Positions 1 through 10,074 of a DNA stretch of 15,142 nucleotides are shown here, piece after piece; within the stretch, counting starts at the first letter, position 1; each line of letters opens with the position of its first letter. This DNA comes from Pseudomonadota bacterium. GTDB lineage: Bacteria > Bdellovibrionota > FAC87 > UBA2466. The DNA is taken from positions 1 to 15,142 of the forward strand of contig JAYSWN010000032.1 in NCBI GenBank assembly GCA_043718025.1, given 5' to 3'. The notes beneath the pieces were generated by a model. The model was not told the origin of the DNA and did not search any database. It saw only the letters and a list, made by a program, of their open reading frames with translations. Made by a program: the position numbers and the translations under genes.

Positions 1-42
1 GGGGAGAGGATTTGAACCTCTGACCTTCGGGTTATGAGCCCG
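1..42 (-). repeat. att-type direct repeat: displaced 3' fragment of tRNA-fMet, truncated by window edge
   Basis: 1-42 (ggggagagga...atgagcccg) is identical to 10005-10046. Identity stops exactly at the D-arm side of the anticodon stem (catg vs acga). Confidence 0.95.
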
Positions 43-179
43 CATGCACTGAGTTAAAGTCAAAACGTAAGTAACTAGAAACACGGTTCAATTAATAAAC
101 AAAACCGGGGGTTAGGCTCCTCAGTCAGTTAAGCTTCCTTCGGATCTTTTCCACTGATTTCGGTCGGTTTCCATTCCTG

Positions 180-278
180 GTGCTACAGATGTGCTACACC
201 GTGTTTTTTTTTTTTGGCTTCCGGAACGCTCTCGCGCTTGCTCGTCCTATGCTCCTTTCAGTGGCTGGATGTAGCACA
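180..278. repeat. GTGCTACA motif cluster (putative recombinase arm-type sites), left end
   Basis: GTGCTACA at 180-187 and 191-198 (11-bp period), with an inverted copy at 270-277. The same motif occurs at 9873-9880. Confidence 0.6.
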
Positions 279-325
279 GTGAATCCTGAGTTCATAGGGG
301 ATGAAATCCTGATATCGTTTCAGGA

Positions 326-652
326 ATGGACTACGTTTTATCTTTTGGCCTTTTTATTGCGGCCGGGCTTTGCGAGATTGGGGGAGGGTGGCTCGTCTGG
401 AAATCCGTTCGCGAAGGACGCCCTGTCTCGTGGGGATTGTTCGGTGGCATTCTCCTGCTGGCCTACGGAATTATTCCGACTTTTCAGAAATCAAATTTCG
501 GGAGAACCTACGCCGCGTACGGCGGATTTTTCATCGCCTTGTCTTTGGCGTGGGGATGGTGGCTGGACGGAAATCGGCCCGACATCGCGGATATTGCCGG
601 CGGCGGAATCGCATTAATCGGCGTTCTGATCATTATGTACTGGCCGCGTTAG
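326..652 (+). CDS. ynfA: YnfA/UPF0060 family small membrane protein (SMR-related)
   Basis: 108 aa, four hydrophobic segments, family motifs AGLCEIGGGWLVW, FGRTYAAYGGFFI and C-terminal YWPR. Confidence 0.92.
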   Translation: MDYVLSFGLFIAAGLCEIGGGWLVWKSVREGRPVSWGLFGGILLLAYGIIPTFQKSNFGRTYAAYGGFFIALSLAWGWWLDGNRPDIADIAGGGIALIGVLIIMYWPR

Positions 653-664
653 CTCTTTCAAGTG

Positions 665-698
665 CGTCGCGCGCGGGGCAAGGCCCAGCGCCGCGACG
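665..698. terminator. GC-rich hairpin between convergent ynfA and MFS genes
   Basis: cgtcgcg(665-671)/cgcgacg(692-698) plus inner gggc/gccc stem. No clear U-tract. Confidence 0.35.
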
Positions 699-791
699 GC
701 GTTTGCCCACTTCGCGTCTACCCAGTTTACTTTTTCTTGCCGGCCTGGCCTTCCAGCCCAAAGGTTCGCAGCAGCTCTCCATATAAACGCT

Positions 792-2030
792 CTACCTGGC
801 CCCTCGGACGTCAGGAATCTGCCTTGATGTAGTCGGCACAAACAATAGAAGCCCGCCACCCGTTAAAGCAATCATTGCACCCACCGCGAATGCGACCCTT
901 GAGCCCTGCGCTTGCCAGAGTAAACCGGTCAAAAGGCTCGCTGGAAGCGCAGCGATTCCGGTAGTTAGCTGTAAGTATCCAAAAGCCGTTCCCCGGTATT
1001 CTTCGGAAGCTAAATCCGTAACGAAAGCCTTCTCCACGCCTTCCGTCATTCCCAGGTAAATTCCGTAAAGAATGAACAGCACGACGAGGTGCCACACCGC
1101 TGTCGCAAAACCGAATCCAATGAGCTGAACGGCGAAGATCATCCAACCCGCCGCAAGAAATCTTCGCCTTCCAAGGCGGTCCGAAAGAATGCCGACCGGG
1201 AATGAAACAACCGAGAGCATGACGTTCATCAAACCGATCAATGAGAAGGTTCCCCACAGCGGAAGGCCCAACTCCTGCGCTCGCAGGGTGAGAAACGCGT
1301 CACTCGTCACGCTCAAGTTGAAAACGAATGCCGCAACCAAGTATCGACGAAGTGAAGGAGGCAGTGAGCCGGTTAAAGAAAACTTCTTCTTGATTGCAGA
1401 TCGATGGGCCGGCTCCGTCACCGCAAAAGCAAGCACGAGAATACATAGGAGAGCGGGGGCCGTCGCGAGAAGGACGAGATAGCGGTAGGTTTTTTCCGAC
1501 AATAGAGGGCTTGTACCCTCAACCAGATAAACGATTAGCGCCGCCAGTGAAAGCCCGATGATTGCGCCGATAGGGTCCATCGACCGATTGAAGCCGAAGG
1601 CACGTCCGCGTTGATTCGCCGGGATGGAATCGGCCAGCAAAGCATCTCTGGGACTTGTCCGAATCCCTTTTCCAACTCGATCGAAGAACCGAATGACGAG
1701 AACCGAAGTCCAGCTCCCCGCAAAATAGAGCAGCGGTTTGGAAAGATTCGATAGCCCGAAGCCCAGAAGCATAAGCGGTTTTCTCTTCCCCAGACGGTCG
1801 GACAGTACTCCTGAAACCAGTTTTAAAAGGGTGGCCGTGGTTTCGGCAATCCCTTCGATTAGCCCTATCAGACCTGTCTTCACTCCCAAAACGTTGGCGA
1901 GAAAAAGAGGTATCGTGCGGACGGCGACTTCACTCGCCATATCATTCAGTGCGCTGACAATTCCAAGAGCGATAACGTTCTTGGAAAGCGACCGTTTACC
2001 GGATTTTTCTTCGTTGTGCGCTATATCCAT
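792..2030 (-). CDS. MFS transporter
   Basis: 412 aa, about 12 TM segments, MFS motif A twice (GVLSDRLGKRK, GILSDRLGRRR), DRVGKGIRTSPRDALLAD signature. Confidence 0.93.
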   Translation of the reverse strand: MDIAHNEEKSGKRSLSKNVIALGIVSALNDMASEVAVRTIPLFLANVLGVKTGLIGLIEGIAETTATLLKLVSGVLSDRLGKRKPLMLLGFGLSNLSKPLLYFAGSWTSVLVIRFFDRVGKGIRTSPRDALLADSIPANQRGRAFGFNRSMDPIGAIIGLSLAALIVYLVEGTSPLLSEKTYRYLVLLATAPALLCILVLAFAVTEPAHRSAIKKKFSLTGSLPPSLRRYLVAAFVFNLSVTSDAFLTLRAQELGLPLWGTFSLIGLMNVMLSVVSFPVGILSDRLGRRRFLAAGWMIFAVQLIGFGFATAVWHLVVLFILYGIYLGMTEGVEKAFVTDLASEEYRGTAFGYLQLTTGIAALPASLLTGLLWQAQGSRVAFAVGAMIALTGGGLLLFVPTTSRQIPDVRGAR

Positions 2031-2060
2031 AAAAAAAACCTACTCCGTAACTCCCGCTTC

Positions 2061-8653: not shown

Positions 8654-8767
8654 TTTCTACCCTTCGAAATTCTTACCACCGCGAGAAAGTTTCGACCGCG
8701 CGACTCGGCTACTTTTGAAGGCCAACCCAATTTACGTGTCATAAAATAATTGAGCGCGTCCGCAGGG

Positions 8768-9811
8768 CTATGCGACATTTCGACGAAACTCATAATGTAG
8801 CCCGCCGACTCTTGGTATTTTGGTAATTTTTCCTTCCCGCTCCACTGGTCGTGGAACTGGCGAGTCTTTGTTGAGAGTTAGGTGCGTTCGCGAATGGTTG
8901 TAATAGTCCTTATATGAGTTGAGCACGCGGGTAAGTTGCCGCTCATTAAAAGCGATTATATGGTCAGTGCACTCTCTTCGGACGGTTCCGATTACTCTTT
9001 CCACGTAGGCATTCTGCCACGGACATTTATGGGCGGTGATTACATCTTTGAACCCATGATACTTGAGGCCCCAAAAGTTTCTGTCCCGGTCGTGAAGCAC
9101 GAACTTAGGTAGCTCTTTAAAAGGATGAGCGTTACGAAGTTGTTGGGCGGTCCACCTTGTAGAGGGCTTACTGGTCACGGCGAAGCGTAATATCTTTCGT
9201 CTGTCGTGAGACAAAATCACCAGCACGTACAGTCTATGAAACCAAATGGTCGGAACCAAAAAGAAGTCCATGGCGATGACGTCTTTGGTATGATTTTTAA
9301 GAAATGTGCGCCAATCTTGTTTGAACGGGCGAGGGAAGTGAGACCGAAGCAGGTACTTCTGTACACTTGCCTGTGAAATTTCAATTCCAAGTTTTAATAA
9401 TTCGCCGTGAATTCTTGGCGCTCCCCACCTGCGATTCGCAATTGAGATTTCTCGAATCAATTTAATGACTCGCCAAGGAAGCGCGCGCCTTCCTCCTTGC
9501 TTGCCGACCTTGCGTCTCCAAAACCAGCGGAACCCCTTCTTATGCCAACGGAGCAGGGTCTCGGGCTGAACTAAATGGAGCGCCCCTTTCCAATTGGTTA
9601 TGTGCCTCGAAAGCCAAACGAGGAAGCTTCTATCCCAGCGTTTAAACGTTGGCCGACTCTGCTTTCGTCGCAAAATCCCCAGTTGGTAGCGGAGAAAGGC
9701 ATTCTCCCAAACCAGCGACTCTCGACTTCTAAAATACCCGCCTATAAGGCCAAAAATTGCACGAATTGCCAACATCATCGGACACTGCCCGACCGATTTA
9801 GACGTCGTCAA
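8768..9811 (-). CDS. Integrase-core (rve, DDE) transposase, IS481-like
   Basis: ENAFLRYQLGILRR, VQPETLLRWH, WGAPRIHGELLKLG, catalytic AMDFF / HDRD / NAYVERVIGTVRRE, C-terminal GGLHYEF. Real start may be ATG 9778 or 9775. Confidence 0.92.
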   Translation of the reverse strand: MTTSKSVGQCPMMLAIRAIFGLIGGYFRSRESLVWENAFLRYQLGILRRKQSRPTFKRWDRSFLVWLSRHITNWKGALHLVQPETLLRWHKKGFRWFWRRKVGKQGGRRALPWRVIKLIREISIANRRWGAPRIHGELLKLGIEISQASVQKYLLRSHFPRPFKQDWRTFLKNHTKDVIAMDFFLVPTIWFHRLYVLVILSHDRRKILRFAVTSKPSTRWTAQQLRNAHPFKELPKFVLHDRDRNFWGLKYHGFKDVITAHKCPWQNAYVERVIGTVRRECTDHIIAFNERQLTRVLNSYKDYYNHSRTHLTLNKDSPVPRPVEREGKITKIPRVGGLHYEFRRNVA

Positions 9812-9842
9812 GGAAGTGGGAATTGCCTAGTAATTTCAGGTA

Positions 9843-9865
9843 GGACGAGGTTTTCAGTAGGCACA
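9843..9865 (-). mobile_element. Probable upstream terminal sequence of the transposable element
   Basis: Minus strand reads TGTGCCTACTGAAAACCTCGTCC, starting with the 5'-TGT typical of IS481-like ends, just upstream of the transposase. No convincing partner end was found. Confidence 0.55.
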
Positions 9866-9882
9866 TACATTTGTGCTACATT
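9866..9882. repeat. GTGCTACA motif at right island end (one full copy, one partial)
   Basis: tacatt-tgtgc-tacatt: TACATT at 9866 and 9877, the same 11-bp period as the left pair. Confidence 0.55.
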
Positions 9883-9968
9883 TTGGGGTTTTTCGAGGCC
9901 GAAAAAATTAAGGCCCCTAGAAGCCGCGGCGTTTGTGCAAACGCTTAAACTACTAGAAGCCTTAATAG

Positions 9969-9993
9969 AAAAGGCCCCCTTTAGGGGGCCTTT
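9969..9993 (-). terminator. Rho-independent terminator of the tRNA, located on island DNA
   Basis: aaaggccccc/gggggccttt 10-bp stem with 4-nt loop, 4 nt after the CCA end, with T-run on the minus strand. Confidence 0.85.
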
Positions 9994-9997
9994 AATT

Positions 9998-10074
9998 TGG
10001 TAGCGGGGAGAGGATTTGAACCTCTGACCTTCGGGTTATGAGCCCGACGAGCTACCAGGCTGCTCCACCCCGCG
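9998..10074 (-). tRNA. tRNA-fMet (initiator), anticodon CAT
   Basis: 77 nt CGCGGGGTGGAGCAGCCTGGTAGCTCGTCGGGCTCATAACCCGAAGGTCAGAGGTTCAAATCCTCTCCCCGCTACCA; unpaired C1:U72, three consecutive G-C pairs in the anticodon stem, encoded CCA. Confidence 0.98.

Follow-up and report, generated by a model that had tools for sequence, protein, structure and literature searches.

The DNA described here, called the window, is a stretch of 15,142 nucleotides that makes up a complete contig (JAYSWN010000032.1, C160 in our numbering) of a Pseudomonadota bacterium (assembly GCA_043718025.1, the source genome, G000), and it carries an island of about 10 kb between a tRNA-fMet gene and a second copy of part of that gene. 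Judged from sequence comparison, this island is very probably a remnant, resembling a cis-mobilizable element (CIME), of an array built from integrative and conjugative elements (ICEs) that use a tyrosine integrase. Next to the tRNA, where related elements carry the integrase, lies an rve/DDE transposase gene whose insertion sequence (IS) appears to interrupt one of the repeats that would serve the integrase as arm-type sites. The account as a whole, an integrase-less remnant of an ICE family together with an IS481/IS3-like IS sitting in an arm repeat that its clade likely targets, is favoured with moderate confidence. The more general proposal is held only a little above even: that small IS481-like transposases, each the only gene of its IS and forming a clade with a 5-residue deletion in the catalytic core, home without a dedicated selector protein on the attachment (att) sites of ICEs (4 nt into an arm, or the att core), and by parasitising ICEs give rise to integrase-less cassettes in tRNA arrays. 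Integrase-less CIME-like remnants are of a known kind; the new part is the presence of an IS481/IS3-like transposon at att features. Below, G001 and similar handles denote related genomes, C numbers contigs and L numbers fetched stretches.

Island, tRNA array and cognate integrase

The ends of the island comprise the following features, all on the minus strand:

1-42: 3' fragment of tRNA-fMet starting in the anticodon stem, the putative distal att core, truncated where the contig ends; C107, C59, C33, C216, C3 and C80 carry homologous fragments
43-208: conserved distal end of the element family; 94% identical to C33, 73-77% to C216, C107 and C59, and 70-75% in G001, G002, G007 and G017
180-198: intact tandem 8-mer pair (TGTAGCAC, 11-bp period), putative integrase arm-type sites; relatives have this pair 150-167 bp ahead of the fragment
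9866-9880: putative arm pair on the tRNA-proximal side, interrupted 4 nt into its second unit by the end of the IS; the same 15-mer runs on as an intact pair in G007 and G004
9969-9992: terminator-like hairpin after the tRNA, read from the sequence
9998-10074: intact tRNA-fMet gene (tRNA call), the putative integration target

Initiator features can be read in the tRNA-Met(CAT) gene, namely a C1 that does not pair with position 72 and an anticodon stem with three G-C pairs; the source genome has no other full-length match to this tRNA-fMet. An earlier note on this DNA had described a 42-bp tRNA duplication around some 10 kb, island open reading frames (ORFs) free of tyrosine or serine recombinases and an apparently intact rve/DDE gene about 190 bp from the tRNA, and each of these observations was borne out. 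The direct repeat is exact (42/42 nt, 1-42 and 10005-10046, spaced 10,004), Pfam gave no match to tyrosine or serine recombinase families among the 10 island ORFs scanned (15 proteins overall), and a PF00589 search of the source genome returned nothing on the window contig. The only mobility gene in the island, at 8768-9811 on the minus strand, encodes an rve_3 protein; its ORF starts 186 bp from the tRNA 3' end, points inward and retains D182, D241 and E271. The island is not distinct in GC content (52.5% versus 51.9% for the genome).

Position 1 is the contig end, so the left copy of the repeat is truncated. The earlier note had expected further tRNA bases and then host DNA or another island to the left. 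Contig C59 starts with exactly the tRNA bases next after window position 1, which fits an island; the join itself is seen on no contig. Hence the true repeat probably measures about 54 bp and is followed by another cassette. Four of the six further tRNA-fMet fragments of the source genome (on the contigs listed above) are preceded by an end of 160-200 bp that is 73-94% identical to window 43-208, and whole cassettes bounded by the same junction occur on C59 (3.5 kb) and C107 (2.9 kb), neither with a PF00589 match. A query with window 1-210 matched 28 of the 33 other family genomes, mostly through the tRNA itself, several with 2-4 copies per contig. Most units bear the tandem 8-mer pair with its 11-bp period both about 50-117 bp past the tRNA end and 150-167 bp before the next fragment (20 stretches), a layout from which we read the pairs as putative integrase arm-type sites. 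On these comparisons the island is read as the first unit of a tandem array at tRNA-fMet. An unoccupied tRNA-fMet site within matching host DNA could not be established, as the flanks fail to align between species.

The cognate integrase of the family is a 400-aa PF00589 protein with conserved RAGE, HDLRH, GH and Y motifs, and 5 of 33 family genomes contain it complete, in six copies altogether. Of these, five begin some 130-200 bp away from tRNA-fMet or a fragment of it, behind an arm pair and pointing inward, which is the slot of the rve gene in the window; the sixth has the same layout at tRNA-Sec. The integrase is followed in G044 and G015 by TraG/TraC- and FtsK-family genes, with a TrbI-family gene also in G044, and by gene content these elements appear ICE-like. 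The source genome keeps a trace of the integrase on C58, its last 40 residues; no full copy was found there, in G001 or in G016. Host XerC/XerD was considered as the recombinase and rejected: the three PF00589 matches of the source genome are two Xer-like genes and an unrelated one, all away from tRNA-fMet, and the relatives supply a better, cognate integrase.

From the tRNA end into the IS end, 160 of 163 bp are identical in G001, a congener in which the xerD region is 70% identical to that of the source genome and the DNA upstream of the tRNA does not align. G001 has kept this junction with other cargo and no rve gene. Junction identity of this order against about 70% in host genes is suggestive of an interrupted junction that passed between species once the IS was in place, the alternatives being a shared habitat or a binning error.

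Two of the options raised in the earlier note can be placed here. That the transposon replaced or deleted the integrase is supported, since the IS end interrupts an arm repeat where relatives carry a tyrosine integrase and the source genome retains the remnant on another contig. That the island is a satellite mobilised in trans is plausible and has partial support from the same-end cassettes in tandem and the junction in a congener, but no intact helper integrase was found, a point to which we return below.

The transposase and the sites of its left end

Three features on the minus strand describe the putative IS:

8768-9811: uninterrupted frame for an IS481/IS3-like DDE (rve_3) transposase that probably starts at 9778 (336 aa); D182/D241/E271
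9849-9865: putative IS left end, starting with TGT and matching the ends of other copies
8737-8751: short motif immediately after the stop codon of the transposase, with counterparts in three other copies; either a degenerate right end or a site internal to the element

The protein matches Pfam rve_3 (E 3e-12) and scores below the cut-offs of both the IS481 model (NF033577, 78.4 bits against 224) and the IS3 model (NF033516, 75 against 160). Its D182, D241 and E271 are invariant in 31/31 aligned sequences, and the predicted structure (mean pLDDT 68) weakly matches retroviral integrases, IS21 IstA and TnsB (best E 5.5e-5). Family members are very numerous: of 7,997 scored candidates, 7,780 have E < 1e-20. 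In the source genome, tblastn with the window protein matched only its own gene. Three Bradyrhizobium plasmids hold 16 matches (41-51% identity), mostly elements of 1.1 kb with TGT...ACA ends at unrelated sites; the window left end is of the same type and precedes the gene in 4/4 close homologues among 401 genomes of the phylum. By these likenesses the rve gene is assigned to an IS, and its protein is probably not the integrase of the island. In the 20 closest proteins aligned, 30 residues and not 35 separate the second D from the E, a common deletion of 5 residues; clade support is 100/100, and lengths are 336-347 aa across the clade. A metagenome scan gave 3 loci, all weak or fragmentary, one of them a fragment inside a tRNA-fMet cassette (L005), a viral scan gave 3 distant loci and phage records none.

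Two side observations concern other copies. Sequencing runs X1 and X2 contain, aligning with window 8761-9872, a second rve copy that is about 87-89% identical, has similar depth and is absent from the G000 assembly, one piece of it with a 696-bp internal deletion. A distant homologue on plasmid NZ_CP088291 (L087), 1 of the 16 plasmid matches, has a reversed tRNA-like fragment (Lys-like, by eye) about 130 bp before its IS left end.

Seven genomic left-end matches were kept, representing six events (the window and G001 count as one), all in one family and with the window included. Each junction was ranked by placing the 15-mer before the left end among all 15-mers of the source genome under an arm matrix. 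The first matrix was built without variant arms; in the rebuilt one two training rows are offset by 2 nt, and the rank of G016 is still near 1e-3. The left end lies 4 nt into the second unit of an arm pair in three events: the tRNA-proximal pair in the window and G001 (rank 1.2e-7 for the window), a distal-type pair on contig C30 of G002 (rank 2.3e-6), and a variant pair in G016, placed about 70 bp past tRNA-fMet as in integrase-bearing elements (rank 9.6e-4). On contig C52 of G002 the sequence before the end matches, at 13 of 14 positions, that found 4 nt into the first unit of the C107 distal pair; the source genome contains only 5 matches of this quality. In the fifth event, that of G042, the end falls within the T-loop of a tRNA-Asp att fragment, some 105 bp past a repeat pair of another kind (rank 0.54), one that also precedes tRNA-Asp fragments in G043 and G002. 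The arm register is thus seen in 4/6 events (two strong matches and two moderate, G016 and G002:C52) and att features in 5/6, or 3/5 and 4/5 when the window is set aside. A candidate target duplication occurs on G002:C30, where a 15-bp direct repeat surrounds a 4.95-kb unit ending in ACA.

With transposases that are only 55-81% identical and stand at arms of differing kinds, the insertions appear independent of one another. The source genome contains the arm 8-mer 102 times, and a preference for this 8-mer alone would therefore rarely meet arms. The best rank among 11 Bradyrhizobium loci was 4e-3, an imperfect control as the matrix was built on the arms of the present family. Left-end matches in G031 and G292, from other families, and in three viral records were discounted as chance, there being no rve gene nearby (within 1.5 kb). 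In 34 family genomes a loose arm-plus-TGT pattern did no better than background, and the same was true of its reversed control. A reversed arm that mimics the IS end fits the window and, by eye, fits the other junctions poorly. Complex prediction for the integrase and the transposase of G002 scored 0.00 in two runs, which speaks neither for nor against binding.

Several points weigh against targeting and against the account built on it. The sample is small, six genomic junctions of one family of which the window is itself one, and the arm function of the tandem repeats is read from their layout only. The match on G002:C52 was noticed after the fact and ranks at only 1.6e-2 under the matrix; the sixth event, on contig C58 of the source genome, has no att feature (about 440 bp from the integrase remnant, rank 0.59), and two further junctions, 30-nt loose ends in read contigs, have no clear arm of this family. 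A canonical right inverted repeat was not found downstream of the gene in the 4/4 loci examined (best 11-13/17, unconvincing), the window 15-mer has no second copy in the source genome and none was found for G016, G002:C52 or G042 in the loci examined. The boundaries of the IS and its target duplication are consequently unproven, and the junctions could be end-points of deletions instead of insertion sites. With regard to mobilisation in trans, no intact helper integrase was found in the source genome, whose assembly is 92% complete and broken at the array.

Some of these points (the few junctions, the one lacking an att feature and the two unclear ones) also speak for the strongest alternative, an unlikely one in our judgement, in which the island has the same origin and the IS is untargeted: random insertion in islands or a single ancestral insertion into an arm, followed by deletions, biased survival near an essential tRNA and a short TGTA-like preference, would give an apparent register. 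GTA before the end is indeed common to several close copies, the four arm-associated copies all fall in one clade (96/96), and homologues are scattered, at 44-49% identity on Bradyrhizobium plasmids and 35-44% in other families of the phylum, with no tRNA found by ARAGORN in the loci where this was tested. Set against it, arms amount to a few dozen bases per genome and yet different ones have been hit (the proximal pair in the window and G016, a distal pair on G002:C30 and the first unit of another distal type on G002:C52), their arm sequences differing, and the copy of G042, which belongs to another clade, lies in a tRNA-Asp att core.

Highly improbable is the idea, a strong form of the third option in the earlier note, that the rve protein is itself a recombinase that integrates units at tRNA-fMet by way of the tandem repeats. 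The gene is intact and adjoins tRNA-fMet in two genera (58% identity), the interrupted junction, with 160/163 positions identical, has apparently passed from one species to another, and G000, G001 and G016 yielded no full cognate integrase. Nevertheless, intact tyrosine integrases occupy the slot in five related elements, an observation of the kind that the note itself had named as refuting this option, many cassettes with the same ends have no rve gene, G001 retains the junction without it, the IS end destroys an arm unit instead of flanking it, homologues at 44-49% identity are plain scattered IS, and a duplication that starts in the anticodon arm is the pattern left by tyrosine integrases. 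What survives of that option is its weaker form, in which a clade of rve proteins is found repeatedly at att-site features of such islands.

Slightly less probable again is an artefact of assembly at the join between tRNA and island or between IS and cargo: the tRNA is not spanned by any read contig, and the second rve copy shares a node of 32 bp (9624-9655), with depths (8.8/7.8 versus 11.7/10.2) that also fit a swapped pairing, but a mis-join is unlikely given that 172-9653 is one contig of 9,482 bp with 0 differences at a depth of about 10 in X1 and X2 (runs which may be the source of the assembly and are not independent of it), that depth is similar on both sides of the tRNA (8.8 over 9626-10022, 11.4 from 10050 onward, in X1), that the ORF is open across the node and that the order tRNA, terminator, arm and IS recurs independently in G001 and G016. 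No circle joint is listed in the assembled read contigs, which drop rare forms.

The account preferred here, a decayed ICE-family unit with an IS at an arm repeat, can be put as a sequence of steps. Comparison indicates that an ICE family with a tyrosine integrase stacks in tandem at tRNA-fMet, elements with the same ends carrying an intact integrase by the tRNA and some of them conjugation genes as well. The integrase would cross over in the anticodon arm, rebuilding the tRNA and leaving a 3' fragment, and repetition of this event would build the array. The IS left end interrupts the tRNA-proximal arm pair; the element would have landed there by preference, probably recognising the att complex bound by integrase and not a short sequence. 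Integrase and transfer genes would have been lost afterwards, through adjacent deletion driven by the IS or recombination between arm copies, with metal-efflux cargo left behind, and the resulting unit could not excise itself and would depend for any movement on a related ICE, in cis or in trans.

Cargo genes and other array units

The interior of the island holds the following genes, named by their best matches:

326-652, plus strand: YnfA/UPF0060 membrane protein (profile match)
792-2030, minus strand: major facilitator superfamily (MFS) transporter (Pfam)
2061-5159, minus strand: CusA/CzcA-like pump of the resistance-nodulation-division (RND) type (Pfam; TIGR00914, 701.3 bits against a cut-off of 701.45)
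5196-5663, minus strand: 155-aa ORF without Pfam match
5660-7027, minus strand: outer-membrane efflux protein (profile match)
7650-7910, plus strand: Cys-rich 86-aa protein with hydrophobic N-terminus, without Pfam match
7967-8653, plus strand: cation diffusion facilitator (CDF) (Pfam)

A small Cys-rich protein with a hydrophobic N-terminus and no Pfam match is encoded in G016 as well (L003, 11117-11542); like that at 7650-7910 it lies near the transposase among metal-handling genes, which in G016 include a multicopper oxidase, and both are possibly exported metal-binding proteins.

Many array units measure only 1.4-3.5 kb (C59 and C107 of the source genome; L050, L052, L058, L060) and carry toxin-antitoxin-like, helix-turn-helix or single secreted-protein genes; the array accordingly resembles a stack of gene cassettes. 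Extra att-core layouts occur inside cassettes, each a tRNA CCCGAAGG half-site with an altered spacer of 7-8 nt, often about 100 bp past the proximal arms (C59 of the source genome at about 180-205; C107, reverse, at about 160-180; L001 at about 210-235, 1830-1850, 9605-9630 and 11410-11440). They may be secondary recombination sites for deletion of the integrase gene or for gene capture. A second array of the same family is probably present at tRNA-Ser on contig C58 of the source genome, where positions 1-3800 show in order a 3' fragment of tRNA-Ser(GGA), a partial family end, toxin-antitoxin-like genes, a solo IS left end, the 40-aa integrase remnant and another RND system. On G043:C83 (L064, 3449-3813) an insert of about 290 bp that shows, in our own reading, putative group I intron features divides tRNA-fMet just past its anticodon. 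A different transposase, DDE_Tnp_1_4, lies about 300 bp past tRNA-fMet on G017:C16 (L057, 10507-11895), which indicates that the site collects unrelated IS too.

Comparison with known systems

A full-text literature search, which took in few subscription papers and did not extend to ISfinder, turned up neither an IS described as targeting the arm sites of ICEs nor any account of this element family, and is weak evidence of novelty. Autonomous tyrosine-integrase islands encode their own integrase by the tRNA, and the window has none. Tn7-like elements use dedicated target selectors (TnsD/TniQ, TnsF). They share with the window a DDE enzyme at a fixed position near a tRNA or att site, but a TnsC ATPase, TniQ and a dead-integrase partner are not among the island ORFs scanned, and the tRNA duplication would come from a separate integrase system. 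With IS481 and IS3 the transposase shares the rve_3 core plus helix-turn-helix, the single ORF and the TGT left end, and its Bradyrhizobium homologues are IS of about 1.1 kb with TGT...ACA ends; it differs in scores far below the cut-offs, in the right inverted repeat not found after the gene and in the 5-residue deletion.

CIMEs, and tandem accretion of ICEs as well as integrative and mobilizable elements (IMEs) at tRNA 3' ends, are described in the accessible part of one source (PMC5704250). Like a CIME, the island has both att ends (core repeat and arm pairs at each, the proximal pair interrupted) and no integrase or transfer genes of its own, and related ICEs with an integrase for the same site exist (G044, G015), the source genome having the 40-aa remnant only. 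It differs in that an IS end cuts one arm unit, the IS stands in the integrase slot and the integrase-less unit is tRNA-proximal. The island itself is an ordinary kind of decayed element, of a sort that can escape, or be misread by, island finders that look for a neighbouring integrase. If the targeting is true, it also offers a mechanism for ICE decay and for the build-up of cassettes at tRNA hot spots.

The closest parallel for the IS is the ISAba32 subgroup of the IS1202 family, for which the accessible part of a preprint reports a left end that always abuts a XerCD site at a fixed register and partial copies that keep the left and not the right end, leaving open whether targeting works by protein contact or DNA architecture (bioRxiv 10.1101/2022.12.17.520857). 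As far as that part goes, both cases combine a DDE transposase related to IS481/IS3, TGT ends, a fixed register at a tyrosine-recombinase site and subgroup-specific indels. They differ in the target (here a putative arm repeat or att core of ICE integrases, there xrs/dif), in protein length (336-347 aa versus 400-500 aa) and in the duplication, the single candidate here being 15 bp, the length given for the non-targeting ISTde1 subgroup, versus 5-6 bp. No XerC/D site was seen by eye 5-6 bp from the left end, the flanks being tandem 8-mers or a tRNA T-loop. A cognate integrase, putative arm repeats and a clade-specific indel are in hand for studying how a one-protein IS chooses its target. If true, the targeting would give, with ISAba32 at Xer sites as the first, a second example of a minimal DDE transposase that seeks out sites of tyrosine recombinases, and would extend recombinase-site targeting from XerCD to the att sites of ICEs.

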